64,000 nucleotides of DNA, from assembly GCA_963818095.1 (NCBI GenBank), contig CAWFRA010000001.1, forward strand, positions 7,558 through 71,557, read 5' to 3'. Below are positions 7,974 to 56,837 of this stretch, piece by piece (the first letter of the stretch is position 1; each line of letters starts with the position of its first letter). A model generated the notes under the pieces. It did not search any database. It saw only the letters and a list, made by a program, of their open reading frames with translations, and was not told where the DNA came from. The stretch is from an uncultured delta proteobacterium (GTDB lineage Bacteria > Desulfobacterota > Syntrophorhabdia > Syntrophorhabdales > WCHB1-27). Both the position numbers and the translations under genes were made by a program.

Positions 7974-9239
7974 TTAGTTCTCGGGGAGGTACACGCTCAC
8001 CGTCGTACCCTTCCCCTCCTCACTCTCTATGTCAATCTGCCCGTCGTGTTTCTTCACTATGCCGTAGGCTACGGACAGCCCCAGGCCCAGGCTTTCGCCC
8101 GACGCCTTCGTCGTGAAGAAGGGCTCGAAGACGCGATGGATTACCCTCTCCCCGATGCCCTTCCCCGTATCCTGTACCCTAAGAAGAATGTACGGCCCTT
8201 TGTTCAACCCGACGGGCAGCTTCTCCGCTTCCGCCCTCTCGACGCTTATCTCGATCTCTCCCTTTGTCTCTTCCACGGCTGCCACCGCGTTGGCGCAGAG
8301 GTTCGTCACCAGCTGCTCTATTTTTACCGCATCGGCAAGGATGGCAGGCAGCGTATCGCCCAGGCGCACCGACAGCCGAATCGAGTCTCCCATCGACGCT
8401 TCAAGCCGTTCGACTGCTTTTGCGACTACCTCGCCGAGATCGATCTTTTCTTTGCTCACGTTCTTCTGCCGGCTGAAGGAGATCAGCGCCCTTGTCGTCT
8501 CGCGCACCCTCATCGCCGCCTTGAGGATATGGTCCAGGCTCTCATGCACCTTTTCATCCTCGGCGTCCTCCAGGGCCAGCTCGGCATAGCCTACGATCAC
8601 CGTAAGGGCATTATTGATCTCATGGGCGATGCCTCCCGCCATCGTCGATAAGGCGTCCATCCTGTCATTCCCCGTCCGCGCCCGTTCCCGCTCCTCGGTC
8701 TCTTTCCTCCCCGTCATATCGATAAGGGCGATGTGAAAAATCGCTTCGCCGGAGGAACACCGAAGCGCCTGAGCACAGAGGAGCACGCAAATCGGCTTGC
8801 CGTCGCGCCCTCCCACGAAGACCTCGGCCATCTCTTTTTCCGAGCCTTTTCTCATCTTATGGAGGAGGTCCAGGAAGATAGGCTTCGAGTCCGGCGCCAT
8901 ACACAGCGAGAACGGCCTGCGGAGGAGAAACTTTTTGTTCCTGACCGACAAAAGAGACACGGCCGCCGCATTGAAGTCCTGGATGGCCCCCGCCATATCC
9001 ACAATGAAGCAGGAAACGGGCGATGACTCAAAGTACCGGGCATACTTTGTCCGGGCCTCCTCGACCACCTGCTGCATCTCGATCAGGTTCTGGTTCTGCA
9101 TCTCCAGCTCGATCTTGTGCAGGCGCAGCTCGTGGAACATGGTCCCTACGCTTCTCTCCATCTCGTCCAGGTACATGTCCGGTTTCATTCGCAGCATTTC
9201 TTCCGCTGCCGATCTCAGCGGGACGTCGTCTTTTTCCAT
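7974..9239 (-). CDS. PAS-domain sensor histidine kinase
   Basis: Coiled coil plus PAS, H-box GGIAHEINNALTVIVGYAELAL, N-box LVTNLCANAVAA, G-boxes DTGKGI and GLGLSVAYGIV. Confidence 0.85.
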   Translation of the reverse strand: MEKDDVPLRSAAEEMLRMKPDMYLDEMERSVGTMFHELRLHKIELEMQNQNLIEMQQVVEEARTKYARYFESSPVSCFIVDMAGAIQDFNAAAVSLLSVRNKKFLLRRPFSLCMAPDSKPIFLDLLHKMRKGSEKEMAEVFVGGRDGKPICVLLCAQALRCSSGEAIFHIALIDMTGRKETEERERARTGNDRMDALSTMAGGIAHEINNALTVIVGYAELALEDAEDEKVHESLDHILKAAMRVRETTRALISFSRQKNVSKEKIDLGEVVAKAVERLEASMGDSIRLSVRLGDTLPAILADAVKIEQLVTNLCANAVAAVEETKGEIEISVERAEAEKLPVGLNKGPYILLRVQDTGKGIGERVIHRVFEPFFTTKASGESLGLGLSVAYGIVKKHDGQIDIESEEGKGTTVSVYLPEN

Positions 9240-9323
9240 TGCGGGTTTGACCTCTCGTTAATAGCGACCCTGAGCCGGGTCGTCGCGGCGTGCGAACGTG
9301 CACGAAAAGGACCGGAGCCATTG

Positions 9324-9362
9324 GAAGAAGAAGAAGAAGAAGAAGAAAACGAAAAGAAGAAA
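9324..9362. repeat. (GAA)8 trinucleotide microsatellite plus degenerate GAA-rich tail
   Basis: gaagaagaagaagaagaagaagaa, then aacgaaaagaagaaag. It lies ~85 nt upstream of the start of the minus-strand kinase gene. Confidence 0.9.
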
Positions 9363-9463
9363 GCCATGCCGTAGCTCTACAGTGATTTACCTTCCGGATG
9401 CACCCGGATACATATTGTCGCAAGGATAGAGAATGATATCATCATTGTAATGCTTGTCAATAG

Positions 9464-10946
9464 TTAAGCCCGAGAGGTCAACATCTCTTTGATTTTGGCG
9501 AGGAGTGCGGTTGGCGATACGGGTTTTTGGATGAATGACACGGGCGCGTCCTTGCCATCCTTCGCCGCCCGCCCGACTATTGCCTCTTTGGCCCTGCCTG
9601 TGATGAACAGGACGCGCACGCCCGGGTGCGCCTTTTTTAAGAATTCGTAAACCTCTTTCCCGTTCTTTTTCGGCATGTCCATATCGAGCAGGACCAGCTT
9701 CACGATCTCCCTGTTCTCTGTGAACGTGTCGATCGCCTCTTCGCCGTCGGAGGCTTCCAGCACGCCGTACCCTTCCTCGCGAAGGACCTCCGCAGTCGCG
9801 CCGCGCGCGGCCGTGTCGTCGTCCGCCAGTAAGAGTACGTCCTGGGAGCTTTCCGCAGCGGGCCCCGCTTCCAAAGTTTCCGCGCGCCTGCTCTCTGCCG
9901 CGAGCGGGAAATAGATGCCCAGGTCCGCACCCGAAAACGCGATGCGGCAACCGTGGCGCCTCAGTGTCGCGTAGGCCGCGGAAAGGCGCATGGCGGCACC
10001 GGCGCGGTCGGCATCCGTCGGACTTACACCTGCGCTTTCGCCTGTGTACGAGATCGAGAGCATCCCCCAGGCGCGCTCCACCGCTTGCCCGCCCTGCCCG
10101 TCCGGAGGCCCGGCGGCAATGCCCGTTTCTATCCGTAGCTGCGTTTTCCCCGGCGCTTCATGTCAAGTCCCCGGCAAGGCAGACTATCGCCTCCGTGAGC
10201 TGCGCTGCGTCCGCGGATACTACGAGGCGCTCGCCTGCGAGCTTGGCGCTCATCCGGCCGCCTCCCGCGAGCAGCGCCTTTACTGCGCCCATTGCTATAT
10301 CGTTCAGGGCGCAAGGCGCGAAAGAGGCCCCTTCAGCGCCCGCGTCCCCGAATGTCCGAATGAAGCCGGCCGCGCTCTCCGAGGCATTGACTATCAGGTC
10401 GGCGTATCGTTTGAGTTTGTCGTCGCCGGTACTCGATTTGAGGAGGCTGGCGTAACCCATGAGCGCCATGAGGCTGTTGCCGACGTCGTGCGAAAGCTTA
10501 CCCGCGAACGCGCCGAAGCCCTCGACGGACCTCTGTAGGCGCGCTTCCAGAACGGCCCTGTCGCTCTCCGCTTTTTTGCGGTCTGTGACGTCCCTGACGC
10601 ATACGAGATAGGCAGGCCCGTCGGATGGGACGGCTGTAATGGAGACTTCGATGCGCGACTGCGTGCCGTCCCCGGCCACGCCCGTTGTCTCGAACCGGGC
10701 GGCCCCGCTTTGAAGAACGGCCGTTATGTCCGCAAGCCCACGGGCGCCGGGTTCGCCGGCCGCGTCGGATGCGCCCGCGTTGCCCGATGCATCCGTCCGG
10801 GGAGCGGCCCACCCCAGCATTTCGAAAAATTTGGGGTTAGCGAACAACTCGCCTTTCAGAAGTGCAATGCCCTCGCTCAGAGTCTTCCATAGCGGTTTTC
10901 CCGCCTCCGTCCACCCCATACCTCCAGCCCCGTCCGGTGCGCACAC
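9464..10946 (-). pseudogene. Hybrid PAS histidine kinase/response-regulator receiver, split by a frameshift near 10081-10158
   Basis: ORF 10158-10946 carries PAS plus the H-box LSHDVGNSLMALMGYASLL and ends at an N-box-like QLTEAIVCLAGD. ORF 9464-10081, in another frame, continues with an ATPase-like tail and a full REC domain (VLLLADDD...LLDMDMPKKNG...KP). Confidence 0.65.
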
Positions 10947-11295
10947 GCCCGGCGACCATAAAGTGATGCCTACCCGGCGCAGTCACTTCACATCGGAAGT
11001 CCGCGTGCCCGGCTGTCCGGCTGGAGGTGCAGCGCACCATTTCCTTTGGTCCGCTTCTCACCCGAGGTTTGTTATCACTGATTGACTAGTTTAATAAGGT
11101 ATGACATTAGTGTCAAGAGAAATCGGCCCAACCCCGGAGGAACCTTTGTCAAATGGCCCCTTTCGGGTAAAACTTTCACCACCGCGCGATGTTGTCCCGT
11201 ACACCGCTGGATTCCGGCTTCCGCCGGAATGACGGAAGAAGACGCACACCCGGTCGTCAAATGGGAATGAATTCCACGGAACTCTAATTGAAAAT

Positions 11296-48171: not shown

Positions 48172-49568
48172 ATGAAGGTATCAGCAAGCTTACCACTTTA
48201 CACATTGGGTTTGTCGCGCGCGAACTGTCCGAGGAAGCAACTTGGCAGGCAATAGTTGAAAATGGAGATATCCTCGCAGACCGGTCACAACATAAAGATC
48301 CAAAATATGCAACGCATGGTATTCATGCTTACAAGGGAAAGTTTTATCCTCAGCTTGCTAAAAGCCTTTTTAATCTCGCTCGCCTTGAGAATGGGCAGCG
48401 CGTTCTCGATCCATTCTGTGGCAGCGGAACCGTTCTGCTTGAAGGTTACCTGAACGGCCTCACTGCCTACGGGACGGATTTAAATGTGCTTGCCGTAAAA
48501 GTGGCACGTGTTAAATGAAATCATTCATGTTGATCCGTACCTGCGGGATCGGTTTTTGTCTCGTTTAGAAACACGATTAGAAACAATGGATGCTTCCGAT
48601 CACTGGCTCGATGTATTCACGGAGGTCGCTATCCAAGAGTTACAGTCCTGGTTCCCCAAACTCGTTCTGGCAAAACTGGGATGTCTTTTGCATAGCATCG
48701 GGGAGGTATCTGAACCACGCGTGCGTGAGTTTCTCGAAGTCATTGTGAGTAGCATCGTCCGGGACGTGTCCCAACAAAACCCCAGAGATTTACGGATTCG
48801 CCGGCGTCAAGAACCACTCACGGATGCGCCGGTATTGGAACTCTTCAAAGAACGTCTGCGCAGTATGCGCATACGGCTCCAACATTTTTCTGAGCGCTTA
48901 AAATATGCTCCGACAGCGTTTCATCCGGCCACAGCCATACATGGCGACTGTAGTGTTCCTAGTGTTTTTGAGGAAAATGGAATCGGGAGGTGTAGTATTG
49001 ATGCGATTATAACGAGCCCTCCATACGCGACCGCGCTTCCCTACATAGACACCGATCGCCTGATATCCTTTTACTTTTCGGCCTGAACTCACGGGAACGG
49101 CACGCTTGAAGCGTCACTCATTGGCAGCAGGGAAATTAGCAAAAAGAAAAAGAGAGATATTGATGAGTTAATTAACCGGAAAGTTTTTGATGGTATTCTC
49201 TCGGAAACCGCATGCTCCATCGTTCGAGAAGTGCGAGAGAGAGGAACAAAACAACCATCGTAGGGTTTCGGCGAGAAAACACTGCTGCGCTGCTTTATCT
49301 CTATTTCAGAGACATGGCTGTGGCGATGCGCAACCTTGATCCTATCCTCCGGCCTGGTGGGTCGGCCTTTTTTGTGATTGGAGATAACAAAACGACTGCG
49401 GGTAACGCAGAAGTGAAGATCACGAGTGGCCGCGTGCTACAAGAAATAGGCATGAGCATCGGATGGAAAGTGGCCGACGTAATCCCAATCACGGTAACGA
49501 CTGAGAACCGACTTCACGCTAAGAACAGCATCACTAAAAATGAGATCATCTGGTTCAGAAAAGCTTAG
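48172..49568 (+). pseudogene. Amino DNA methyltransferase 2, paralogous architecture, with three or more frameshifts (start uncertain)
   Basis: HGIHAYKGKFYPQLAKSLFNLARLENGQRVLDPFCGSGTVLLEGYLNGLTAYGTDLN / ..IDAIITSPPYATALPYIDTDRL / ..LRPGGSAFFVIGDNK..NEIIWFRKA. Confidence 0.7.
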
Positions 49569-53401: not shown

Positions 53402-53867
53402 TGATATGGGTTTACCCCCAAGGACATGCCCATCTTTTAATACGGGAAAAAAAGGCAGACAACGTAAAGCGTGTAGTTACAGGATGTTAGCCGGACATGA
53501 GCGCCATAAGGGGGCATTTGGGGACATATGCGCCGGAGAGGGCGGAACGGCGGACCTGCAGAAAGACGGGCCGGTGGACAGCCCTAATAGCTATGGGAAA
53601 AGAAGCTCACGAATCTGTTTCGATCGCATTCGGGCTCGTGGATAGGGTACGTGCGGCGGGTATGAGTGCTTTCAACGGGTCAGAACGTAATCTTCATCGA
53701 CCGTCGTCTTTTTGGGGCGGCGGTCTCCTTCCTGAAGGCGTTTATTGCCCCCTCAACAGAGAAGATGAACGGTTCCAGTGGCAATCGGTGGCAGATATAG
53801 CCCATACCAAGTAAGATTTGGCTCTCTGGTAAACTTCTCTAATTTAAGAACAAAGAAGCAAAGGCTA

Positions 53868-54567
53868 TTACCGTCGCCCGCCCAGGGCCTCATCGCAAAC
53901 CTTCATGCAGACGGAGCAGGTGAGCCCTGCCTGTCGATATGCGCGGCAGGAGAACTTGTTCATGGCATAGACCGTGTCCTTAGCGGGAACCTCCAAAGAT
54001 TTTGCGGGGCAGTGTGTCACACAGGCGCCGCACCCCGAGCAGAGATCGTCGAAGGTGCGGGGCGAGGGCTCCAGGTCGGCCTCAGTGAGCAGGCAGGCGA
54101 GCCTGACCCGTGGCCCAAACTCCTCCGTGATCAGCAGGCTGTGCCAACCGATCTTTCCCATGCCGGCGAGCTCCGCGACGTGCTTGTACGAGATAAGGGC
54201 TTCCAAGAAACGCGGGTCTGTTGGAGCGACGGCGGGAAGGGGCAGGGAGCGATAACCTCGTCGCCGGAAGTGTGCGGCCAGTCTCATGCACTCCCCTGTT
54301 GAGCCTTCCGTTTAGGTACTCCGAATGCACGGGTAGGAGGTCCCCTCCGTGCGCCTCGCCGGCCTCGTTTGAAGGCCTCAGTAGGTCTACGACTTCAGAG
54401 TATATCTCCTTGGCAAAGACGACGACCGACCGCGCAGTGGGCAGGAGGGGATGAACCCTCTTCTCCAACTCCGGGAAACGGGCGCTCTCGATGGTCGTCA
54501 CCCCAGCCAGATCAATCTCGAACCGCGCCTTCATTTCGTCGAGAAAACTCCTGCCGAACGCTTCCAT
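53868..54567 (-). CDS. Fe-S protein related to the epoxyqueuosine-reductase/reductive-dehalogenase family, with one frameshift near 54290
   Basis: 54082-54567 is the N-half. 53868-54287 (..LAGMGKIGWHSLLITEEFGPRVRLACLLT..CSGCGACVTHCP..CSVCMKVC) is the C-half. Confidence 0.55.
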
Positions 54568-54599
54568 TCGTGTCTCCTTGTTCTTCCCTTCCGGGTTTG

Positions 54600-55067
54600 T
54601 CAGTTCTCTGCGTGAAGGATCAGGTTGTCCTTTATATCAATGCAGCCAATCACGCTTTGGGCGGCAGGGCATGAGGCAATGTAGGAGGCAAAAGCATCGC
54701 GGGCCCCTTGCGCCTTTTCGTCTTTTGCCGTAAAGTGGTAATCGACTCGAATCTGAGTGATCTTCAATACTCCGTTAACGTTCTCTATGTCACCCTCTAC
54801 TTCTGCCCGGTAAAGGTCGCCCCTCGTGTCTATCTCTTTTCTGGCCAGCACCGCGGCCAGTGTTCCCATCATTCAGCCGGCCGTAGCGGCGATCATATGA
54901 TCGAGGGTGGCGGGATATTCCTTCTCCGGTTCGACGCCGTAGAACTTCTTGATGCCGCTATGGACGCCGTAATATACCGGCTCATTGAACCCCTCGATGA
55001 CTGCCTTCCTCGTGGGGCCCTTCTCCCTCACGATCCTGATGCGCGATGTGTGGATGACTTCTCCCAA
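54600..55067 (-). CDS. OsmC/Ohr-family peroxiredoxin-like protein with an in-frame TGA (candidate selenocysteine) at the catalytic Cys position
   Basis: ORFs 54873-55067 and 54600-54872 are contiguous in one frame: ..LDHMIAATAG-TGA-MMGTLAAVLA..., plus the resolving-Cys motif YIASCPAAQSV. AAGGAGG lies 4 nt before the TTG start at 55067. Confidence 0.7.
54841..54860 (-). promoter_or_regulatory. Candidate bacterial SECIS hairpin
   Basis: On the mRNA: UGA, 12 nt, then CUGGCC-GCGGUGCU-GGCCAG (6-bp stem, GGU-containing loop). Confidence 0.5.
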
Positions 55068-55079
55068 AGAACCTCCTTT

Positions 55080-55826
55080 TTAATCCCCCCGTACCACCAG
55101 GCGCCTCTTCTGCTGGAAGACGCTCCCCGTTCTTTTCAATTCCTTGAGCGCCCTCGTGACGCTCACCCGGTGGGCGCCAACGAGGAACGCCAGGTCCTCA
55201 TGGGTGAGAGGGAACTCTATGACCAGACCGTCCTGGCTTTTGATCCCGTGTTCCAGCGCCACGTGGCGAAGCACCTGGTACAGGCGCTCGCTCAGGTGGG
55301 TGAGGGACATGCTCTCTATGCGGCTGGACAGAGATGATATGCGCTTGCTCAGATTTCTCATTACCTGAAGTCCGATGCGCGGGTGGTCAAGGACCAGCTT
55401 CTCGAACCCTTCCTTCGTAAATCCGCAGGTCAGGGTCTCCTCCATGCACAATGCCGTCACCGGGTAGACGGTCTCTTCCCCGAGCATGTTCTCGCCCAGG
55501 AAATCGCCCGCTTTCCTTATGTCGAGAGTAAGCTCCGTTGTCTTCAAGGAGTTGCTCAACTTAACCCTCCCTGCCTTGATGAGGAACATCCGGTCGGTAG
55601 GATCGGCCTGAACGAAAATCGGCTGGCCCTGCGCATAGACGTTCCTCGCCGCCGAACCTATGAGGGCCTGCAAATCAGGAGGCTCGAGGCTCTCGAAGAG
55701 CCAGACGCGCCCCAGGCACAACCCCGAACTGGTCCCCGAGACGGGTATCTCGGTGCAAGGGCATAAAGGCTTTTTCTCTCTCACCGGGCCTCCCGCTCCA
55801 TTATAGCACAAGGGCTTGGTCGGCAT
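55080..55826 (-). CDS. Crp/Fnr-family transcriptional regulator with a Cys-rich N-terminus
   Basis: cNMP-binding-like barrel (MFLIKAGRVKL..), C-terminal HTH LTHEDLAFLVGAHRVSVTRALKELK, and N-terminal cysteines (LCYNG..LCPCTE..GLC). Confidence 0.8.
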   Translation of the reverse strand: MPTKPLCYNGAGGPVREKKPLCPCTEIPVSGTSSGLCLGRVWLFESLEPPDLQALIGSAARNVYAQGQPIFVQADPTDRMFLIKAGRVKLSNSLKTTELTLDIRKAGDFLGENMLGEETVYPVTALCMEETLTCGFTKEGFEKLVLDHPRIGLQVMRNLSKRISSLSSRIESMSLTHLSERLYQVLRHVALEHGIKSQDGLVIEFPLTHEDLAFLVGAHRVSVTRALKELKRTGSVFQQKRRLVVRGD

Positions 55827-55851
55827 GACTCGCCTTTCCGCTGCGGTTGGC

Positions 55852-56270
55852 CTATATCGATTTCTCCCAGCCCTGTCCGAAGTCGGCGAAGGGTCTTACC
55901 TCCTGTACCTCAAAGGTGATGGCTGCGTGCATCATGTTCGCGGCGGACTCTCCCGCTTTTGCCCTAAGCTGGGCCTTCAAAGAATCGAGCCTCTCGCCGG
56001 ACGTCTGACACTCAGTCATTCTCAGATAAACCTTACTCCCTTCCATTCGGGCGGGGTCTGACCGGGCTCCATAATAGCGAATAGAGCGTAAGGATTCTCC
56101 TGGAGATAAGAAAAGGTCCGGTTCTTGCCGCAGCCCATGAATATCGTTTTTTCGTCTATCATCTGCGCCGATCCGAAGTAGGCGGCATCTATCTTTCCGT
56201 CCTTGCCCGCAGTGGCAAGAACCCCCAACCGGGGCATCTTGTTGAAATACGCTTTCAGGTCCGTCGACAT
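55852..56270 (-). CDS. Pyridoxamine-5'-phosphate-oxidase-like FMN-binding split-barrel protein with one frameshift near 56030
   Basis: MPRLGVLATAGKDGKIDAAYFGSAQMIDEKTIFMG...EWKGVR, continued in the next frame as VYLRMTECQTSGERLDSLKAQL.. Confidence 0.6.
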
Positions 56271-56837
56271 TGGTTCCTCCTTATAGATAGTGGGCCTGCA
56301 ATCCCATGGATATTATAAACATCGAAAGATCGACGGCGTCTGTAGCGATTGCTACAGCGGTGGGTCCGGAAAAGAAAATTCATGTGAGAGCGGACCAAAA
56401 AAGAAGAATCTAGTCAGATGCTGAAGCAACCGTGAAGGGGGGGAATAGCGGACAGCCGTAAACAAGCAACTCCAAAGGAGATGAGGACTTGGCTCTATAT
56501 GTTGTCTGTCCGGTGGAGGATCGCCCTTTCCTGCGGTAATCCTTGTTCCAGCCTAACCGCCAACTCAACGCCTTGTATATGACATTGACAAGCGGCAGGG
56601 GGTGATAGGATATGCGGATTACGCCTGCGGTGCGGACTCAACGGCATTGTGAAGAAGCGTGTTACCTATCTTACGTCATTCTTTCGTTCGGAATGAGCTG
56701 CGGCGAGGACGGGCCTGTCGGCACGGAGCCGACGAAAAGACACTTACGGAGGAAACGGGAGGGGCCTGTCCGACCGGGACAGGGCAGGGACGTCAGGCAT
56801 CGCGTGGGAGGGACAGGGCAGGCCCCCTTTGTGCCTT

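Follow-up and report, generated by a model that had tools for sequence, protein, structure and literature searches.

The window analysed here is a 64,000-nucleotide (nt) stretch of contig CAWFRA010000001.1 from an uncultured delta proteobacterium, and the locus of interest is a minus-strand run within it in which a PNPOx-like gene, a Crp/Fnr-family regulator gene, an OsmC-family gene interrupted by an in-frame TGA, and a gene for an Fe-S protein follow one another (Table 1). A first-pass annotation, made from the letters alone, had described the OsmC-family gene as two open reading frames (ORFs) that abut in the same frame and are parted by TGA alone, and had put it forward as a candidate selenoprotein. 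Its coordinates are correct: on the minus strand, the ORF at 54873-55067 encodes 64 amino acids (aa) and ends at the TGA at 54873-54875, and the ORF at 54600-54872 encodes 90 aa in the same frame with zero bases between the two, which gives the junction ...LDHMIAATAG-TGA-MMGTLAAVLARKE. When the two were joined across the TGA, the resulting 155-aa product matched the Pfam OsmC model PF02566 at 41.5 bits against a cut-off of 27.5 (E = 1.9e-10) over residues 51-145, with the first 50 N-terminal residues lying outside the match, and orthologues aligned colinearly with the gene along its whole length. A 98%-identical copy in an independent assembly (locus L001) has ATG where the window gene has its TTG start. 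Taken together with the comparisons below, we conclude that positions 54600-55067 very probably hold one functional gene of the OsmC/Ohr superfamily, predicted to encode a thiol peroxidase with selenocysteine (Sec) as its peroxidatic residue.

The orthologue set was assembled through two scans of one-genome-per-species contigs, which yielded 142 distinct orthologous loci; the first scan comprises 80 loci, and several of the later counts use these 80. Codon 65, the site of the in-frame TGA, is TGA in 138 of the 142 loci, TGC in three and TGT in one, and it is never TAA or TAG, which supports the earlier proposal of an in-frame stop at a functionally meaningful codon. Within the first scan alone, all 80 loci carry TGA at this codon, and L001 carries it too. 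As a control, we tallied the terminal stops of the same orthologous genes, which are TAA in 56, TGA in 48 and TAG in 37. Cysteine (Cys; TGC or TGT) occupies codon 65 in three separate lineages, namely the Smithella group, L160 and L162, and the distant full-length relatives (at most 50% identity) mostly have Cys in this column, with a few having lost it. The alignment of homologues therefore puts Cys or TGA in exactly the codon-65 column, as expected from the claim that the TGA stands at the conserved active-site Cys of OsmC/Ohr proteins.

The coding sequence is conserved on both sides of the TGA. For the N-terminal half, mean pairwise amino acid identity was 0.80, and for the C-terminal half it was 0.67; these values indicate that both halves of the gene are under purifying selection. 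Within the window, TGA terminates 8/24 Pfam-supported ORFs, and the organism's code therefore does not make TGA generally sense; an alternative genetic code was excluded on this basis. The comparative signal, which consists of TGA in 138/138 orthologues that do not encode Cys together with near-invariant synonymous sites in the stem described below, is far beyond chance. These comparisons strongly support the view that TGA at codon 65 is under selection as a sense codon, and they predict that it almost certainly encodes Sec at the catalytic position.

According to the titles of their records, the loci belong to Syntrophorhabdales, Syntrophales/Smithella, Desulfobacterales, Desulfomonilia, Desulfobaccales and other Thermodesulfobacteriota, and further loci belong to Nitrospirota (Thermodesulfovibrionales, Candidatus Sulfobium), plus a few bins labelled otherwise. 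Several genomes hold two copies of the TGA-containing gene (L002/L006, L005/L012 and L105/L107). Examples are two contigs each of MFD01828.bin.1.64 and MFD01476.bin.2.71, and a single Desulfomonilia contig, JBEKDT010000007.1, has two sites.

We also compared the predicted protein with Ohr proteins of solved structure. In the family profile, the residue encoded by the in-frame TGA (U65) falls on the peroxidatic Cys (...aaGYSAC...) of the Ohr structures 6d9n and 2bjo, and Cys133 falls on their resolving Cys within the C-P motif (CP(Y)S). The SCPAAQS motif, which had been pointed out as the downstream resolving-Cys motif, is indeed present and contains Cys133. An AlphaFold model of a Cys-form orthologue (P0004, 68% identical) reached a mean predicted local distance difference test (pLDDT) score of 82 and a predicted template modelling (pTM) score of 0.80, and its search against the PDB returned 48 matches at E <= 0.001, all of which are OsmC, Ohr or OsmC-like; the modelled structure places the family within the OsmC/Ohr alpha-beta fold. 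Among the Sec-form sequences, U65, C133, R14, R20, D56, H57 and T69 are invariant (138/138). Cys142 is kept in 137/138, and its counterpart in the Ohr structures is Asn; the Asp56-His57 pair lies upstream of the stretch that aligns to those structures. Cys142 and Asp56-His57 might act as a further resolving residue, bind a metal or provide a catalytic acid/base.

Downstream of the UGA, the mRNA can form the hairpin CUGGCC-GCGGUGCU-GGCCAG, which begins 12 nt past the UGA and which had been noticed earlier for its GGU-containing loop and its likeness to a bacterial selenocysteine insertion sequence (SECIS). We found that it is both the minimum-free-energy and the centroid structure of the local RNA, and that an extra G-U pair lengthens the stem to 7 base pairs (bp) with the loop CGGUGC. 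Conservation was assessed in an alignment of 80 sequences from the UGA to +47, with the 76 distinct sequences used for pairing counts. Each of the seven stem pairs (columns 16-22/29-35) is formed in 65-76 of the 76, an eighth pair (23-28) is formed in only 15 sequences, and the loop guanosines G24 and G25 are present in 75/77 and 65/77 sequences, respectively. Among four-fold degenerate codons, nearly every third position in the gene has an entropy of 1.3-2.0 bits, with one further site at 1.07, whereas the stem codons Thr, Leu, Ala, Leu, Ala and Gly (window residues 69-71 and 74-76) show entropies of 1.0, 0.06, 0.26, 0.0, 0.51 and 0.63 bits, and the next scored site after the stem is back at 1.87 bits. 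The hairpin that had been reported is thus a conserved stem-loop at the canonical distance from the UGA, with constraint at synonymous sites.

The hairpin varies among more divergent members in ways that are consistent with a SECIS. At L046, where the protein is altered to LARFLGQHG, moving the 3' arm by one base still allows a 6-bp stem, and such a stem is seen in the centroid structure. L165, a member of a divergent clade on a JGI metagenome contig (569-628; ~50% identity; U-L-L-G-T), has an in-frame TGA too, and its hairpin differs, being a 6-bp CCGCAC-UGGAU-GUGCGG located 19 nt past the UGA. Of the three Cys lineages, only L162 retains the stem, which is disrupted in L160 and in the Smithella group (CTGTCC...GGCCAG). 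Stem loss in Cys forms fits a relaxation of constraint after replacement of Sec by Cys, as seen across three lineages only.

Several results weigh against a gene that encodes Sec under the direction of this hairpin. At the level of the protein, the match of the family profile to solved Ohr structures is weak (E = 0.011), a PDB search with the single window sequence returned no OsmC match, such that the family profile alone reached Ohr, and the fold model was made on P0004 rather than on the window protein. At the level of the RNA, the hairpin on its own is thermodynamically ordinary (z = -0.7), with 50/200 shuffled sequences folding equally well. True compensatory covariation is scant and amounts to one pair, in which C-G changes to U-A in five sequences: all sequences with U16 have A35 (5/5), an association with p = 2e-4 in a naive hypergeometric test that ignores relatedness. 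The remaining stem variation is between G-C and G-U or between U-A and U-G. Covariation is scant because the stem hardly varies, and the support for a SECIS accordingly rests on synonymous constraint rather than on covariation. A scan with the whole Rfam library, in which bacterial SECIS models were assumed, not verified, to be included, gave no match within 54500-55200 at E <= 10 and none across the whole window at the gathering score. At the level of the genome, ARAGORN detected no tRNA-Sec in the window or in any of the fetched loci, tblastn searches with E. coli SelA, SelB and SelD returned no match in the window or the 80 loci, and Pfam annotation of ~40 window ORFs revealed neither a sel gene nor another classical selenoprotein. 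A screen for Sec/Cys pairs at every in-frame TGA in 1.75 Mb likewise yielded no second selenoprotein and returned only the OsmC family, its out-of-frame shadows and artefacts from adjacent genes. Use of Sec is plausible for the host lineage by analogy with its relatives: anaerobic Deltaproteobacteria rank with the bacteria richest in selenoproteins (PMC9312934), and Syntrophorhabdus aromaticivorans is listed among the genomes with a selenoprotein-containing SAO cassette (bioRxiv 10.1101/2022.07.06.499078).

Public databases hold this family mostly in pieces. A protein search returned 2391 relatives, of which about twenty are full length and have C or 'W' in the TGA column, and the others are mostly fragments, either ~88-90 aa beginning exactly at MMGTL or ~87 aa ending at ATAG. 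The entries with 'W' at the Sec position are P0001, P0003, P0009, P0011-P0013 and P0067/68/86, and in the two that we checked the DNA reads TGA (P0001 in L164 and P0068 in L165). These 'W' calls come from gene callers that apply code 4/25 to short metagenomic contigs; alignments that include them could be misleading. An exact-sequence search of public assemblies for the 90-aa ORF of the window had no match on record. An exhaustive profile search of 1.84 billion representatives delineated a compact family, with 774 matches at E <= 1e-3, of which 270 reach E <= 1e-10; by our own count of the best 150 matches, ~40 end at profile position 64 and ~20 begin at positions 66-67, which indicates that the split is systematic in public gene calls. 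The NCBI entries for the clade are truncated ~89-aa proteins named 'OsmC family protein'. On our reading of the gene, its correct annotation would be one 155-aa selenoprotein, neither two ORFs nor a pseudogene, and the same fix would extend to hundreds of database entries. The clade fails the NCBI curated model, and a dedicated hidden Markov model would let annotation pipelines recover it.

The genes around the OsmC-family gene were annotated with Pfam, which confirmed the minus-strand order that had been proposed, with the PNPOx-like gene, the Crp/Fnr gene and its Cys-rich N-terminus, the OsmC-family gene and the Fe-S gene in succession. In this Syntrophorhabdales-like lineage, the Crp/Fnr gene is probably co-transcribed with the OsmC-family gene. 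Its product has four cysteines near the N-terminus (C7, C22, C24 and C37), which we take to resemble an FNR-type Fe-S sensor motif. A search for the FNR/CRP box TTGAT-N4-ATCAA gave no more hits than expected by chance, with the region upstream of the operon having none, and a scan of 53600-56800 for promoters and terminators stayed at background level with nothing convincing. Across the 80 loci of the first scan, Crp/Fnr neighbours were found at 12, PNPOx neighbours at 8 and Fe-S neighbours at 3-5, in close relatives only. The earlier interpretation of the run as a redox-stress unit is therefore supported only in part: the run is present in the window, but it is not conserved beyond close relatives; a family-wide conserved redox operon was rejected for this reason, and the Crp/Fnr-PNPOx-Fe-S arrangement appears to be specific to the lineage rather than a property of the family.

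Table 1. Coordinates of the OsmC-family gene, its predicted elements and the neighbouring genes in the window.
Feature	Position	Strand	Remarks
OsmC-family gene, complete, predicted selenoprotein	54600-55067	(-)	155 codons; basis: frame, translation, PF02566, colinear orthologues
Start codon TTG	55065-55067	(-)	OsmC-family gene
Terminal stop TGA	54600-54602	(-)	OsmC-family gene
In-frame TGA, codon 65, predicted Sec codon (U65)	54873-54875	(-)	Peroxidatic-Cys position
SECIS-like stem-loop	54841-54860	(-)	12 nt 3' of UGA
Hairpin 5' arm CUGGCCG	54854-54860	(-)	
Hairpin apical loop CGGUGC	54848-54853	(-)	
Hairpin 3' arm UGGCCAG	54841-54847	(-)	
Cys133 codon TGC, SCPAAQS motif, predicted resolving Cys	54669-54671	(-)	Ohr 6d9n/2bjo alignment
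Cys142 codon TGC, family-specific third Cys, GCI motif	54642-54644	(-)	
Asp56-His57 pair	54897-54902	(-)	
Ribosome-binding site AGGAGG	55072-55077	(-)	4 nt 5' of TTG start; read directly from sequence
Crp/Fnr-family regulator gene	55080-55826	(-)	Directly upstream, 12-nt gap; cNMP_binding, HTH_Crp_2 and Crp domains
PNPOx-like gene, frameshift-split into two ORFs	55852-56270	(-)	Further upstream; PF01243
Fe-S (4Fe-4S ferredoxin-type) protein gene, frameshift-split	53868-54567	(-)	Directly downstream, 32-nt gap; Fer4 domains

The closest locus, L001 (CAWEPK010000012.1, 8125-11147), is 97.6-98.2% identical to the window at 53725-56577 only. This common block of ~2.9 kb comprises the PNPOx, Crp/Fnr, OsmC-family and Fe-S genes, and the 10-kb flanks on either side are unrelated; the block could possibly be a paralogous or relocated cassette, or reflect a rearrangement or a chimeric assembly. 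In L001, the PNPOx-like gene (a single 139-aa ORF) and the Fe-S gene are intact and the Crp/Fnr gene is frameshifted (gene coordinates 8433-8852, 10201-11004 and 9049-9915). The window shows the reverse, with an intact Crp/Fnr gene and frameshifted PNPOx-like and Fe-S genes, in line with the earlier remark that other disruptions in the window are frameshifts, unlike the clean TGA. Because the frameshifts differ between the window and L001, they look like indel errors, and the TGA is common to both; this comparison points to errors of long-read assembly in the flanking genes rather than real pseudogenes. Elsewhere in the window, an ORF at 48508-49260 on the plus strand has a translation that ends ...ITSPPYATALPYIDTDRL... 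and is followed by TGA at 49084-49086 and 58 more in-frame codons. A motif resembling SPPY suggests a DNA methyltransferase, and this TGA is probably a frameshift or an ordinary gene end.

We weighed decoding of the UGA as Sec against three other accounts of the locus. If the gene were a pseudogene or an assembly error, a nonsense mutation or a base-call error would have turned TGC or TGT into TGA, and the frameshifted neighbours in the window do suggest an error-prone assembly. However, the neighbours are disrupted by indels, which are not the same in the window as in L001, as expected from long-read errors, whereas the TGA is common to L001 and 137 other independent genomes and is flanked on both sides by sequence under purifying selection. 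The recurrence of the TGA in independent assemblies and the selection on both flanks effectively refute this account, to which we assign next to no probability. Alternatively, the UGA could be a real stop within a split gene, in which termination and reinitiation at UGA-AUG-AUG yield 64-aa and 90-aa parts that assemble an OsmC-like fold without its catalytic residue. In the window, as in nearly every orthologue, the TGA is indeed immediately followed by two ATG codons, and the gene calls in public databases correspond to precisely these two polypeptides. However, the Cys forms conserve the Met-Met pair after their Cys just as strongly, which indicates a constraint on the protein rather than a start signal, and a real stop would be expected to drift among TAA, TAG and TGA in the manner of the terminal stops, whereas codon 65 does not. 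Furthermore, no conserved ribosome-binding site precedes the ATG, the third positions of codons 61-64 being free (1.86-1.98 bits); the product would lack the peroxidatic residue, which every Cys homologue retains; and the conserved hairpin would be left unexplained. We regard a split gene as very improbable. In a variant of it, termination and reinitiation might operate only under selenium scarcity, and it is conceivable, as a speculation to which we give little credence, that the invariant UGA-AUG-AUG junction also permits this route when selenium is limiting.

The third account accepts read-through of the UGA and ascribes it to a near-cognate tRNA that inserts Trp or Cys, with stimulation by the hairpin, in a genome without Sec machinery. 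It draws on the lack of Sec machinery in the window and the fetched loci and on the W that some gene callers translate at codon 65. However, the 'W' forms that were checked are TGA in the DNA and are artefacts of code 4/25, TGA serves as a normal stop codon in the window, and the host lineages are known users of Sec. Moreover, alternation of Cys and UGA at the catalytic Cys, combined with a hairpin at SECIS distance that carries guanosines in its loop, is the classical signature of Sec (PMC1088965), which argues against insertion of another amino acid. Read-through by such a tRNA appears no more credible to us than a split gene. By comparison, decoding of UGA-65 as Sec through the hairpin is highly likely, as judged from the aligned sequences.

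Under Sec decoding, the stem-loop would act as a bacterial SECIS that recruits SelB·GTP·Sec-tRNA(Sec), and UGA-65 would thereby be read as Sec instead of stop. By homology to OsmC/Ohr, Sec65 at the N-terminus of the long helix would attack a hydroperoxide to form a selenenic acid, Cys133 in the C-P motif would resolve it to a selenenylsulfide, and a dithiol donor, which in Ohr is a lipoylated protein, would regenerate the enzyme. The peroxidase chemistry, the reductant and the regulation are proposals, and our confidence in the chemistry is lower than our confidence in Sec decoding. If the proposal is true, strict anaerobes, including syntrophs and sulfate reducers, would have a further, Sec-dependent enzyme for peroxide detoxification among their defences against oxidative stress, and the family would offer a clean natural example of a SECIS that overlaps coding sequence and of stem decay after replacement of Sec by Cys. 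It would leave the understanding of Sec decoding and of OsmC/Ohr chemistry unaltered and would not surprise a specialist.

Selenoproteins of the OsmC type have a precedent. An OsmC-like family of the COG1765/YhfA type with the motif UxxT was described in 2005 by Zhang, Fomenko and Gladyshev from the Sargasso Sea (PMC1088965), and it is the sole OsmC entry in the 2022 and 2026 catalogues (PMC9312934, PMC13188914); presumably, it underlies the NCBIfam model NF041052, 'OsmC-related (seleno)protein'. The window protein resembles this family in its PF02566 superfamily, in the predicted Sec in place of the redox-active Cys, in the candidate bacterial SECIS downstream with guanosines in its apical loop, and in the existence of Cys homologues in both. 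However, the window protein scores only 15.8 bits against the NF041052 cut-off of 95, and the best of 33 clade members reaches only E = 2e-6, with none reaching the curated cut-off. The motif also differs, being U-M-M-G-T in the window and 138 orthologues, which places Thr at +4 rather than in UxxT, and the hosts are anaerobic Thermodesulfobacteriota and Nitrospirota of soils, peat and sediments, not plankton of the surface ocean. The clade is therefore set apart by model score, motif, habitat and taxa, and it is unlikely to be identical with the 2005 family.

Relative to the two-Cys peroxidases of the Ohr/OsmC type (Xylella Ohr 1zb9, Pseudomonas Ohr 1n2f, E. coli OsmC 1qwi and Elizabethkingia Ohr 6d9n), the predicted fold is alike, as are the size of ~140-155 aa, the reactive residue that opens a long helix, and the resolving Cys in a C-P motif ~68 residues on. 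In contrast, the window clade is predicted to have Sec for the peroxidatic Cys, and it adds Cys142 (in 137/138) and the invariant D56-H57. No clade member reaches the cut-off of the subfamily models TIGR03561 (Ohr), TIGR03562 (OsmC) or TIGR03563 (SACOL1771), for which the best E-values range from 1e-3 to 4e-4 and the bit scores shown are 13.6-20.4 against the cut-offs shown of 85.8 and 166. The SECIS of the E. coli fdhF type comprises a minimal 17-nt upper stem-loop ~11 nt past the UGA, in which SelB binds a G and a U of the loop. The window stem-loop is similar in lying within coding sequence, 12 nt past the UGA, with a G-G-U-containing apical loop, but it has another sequence and no bulged U, and two Leu-Ala codon pairs (CUG GCC) make up its GC-rich 7-bp stem. 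Taken together, these comparisons suggest that the clade belongs to a known kind of selenoprotein and is probably a separate clade within it. We see an even chance that it constitutes an uncatalogued, distinct family apart from the COG1765/UxxT type, one that would be near-fixed for Sec (138/142) in anaerobic Thermodesulfobacteriota and Nitrospirota, with a SECIS formed by Leu-Ala pairs and with an annotation that is systematically split or truncated.

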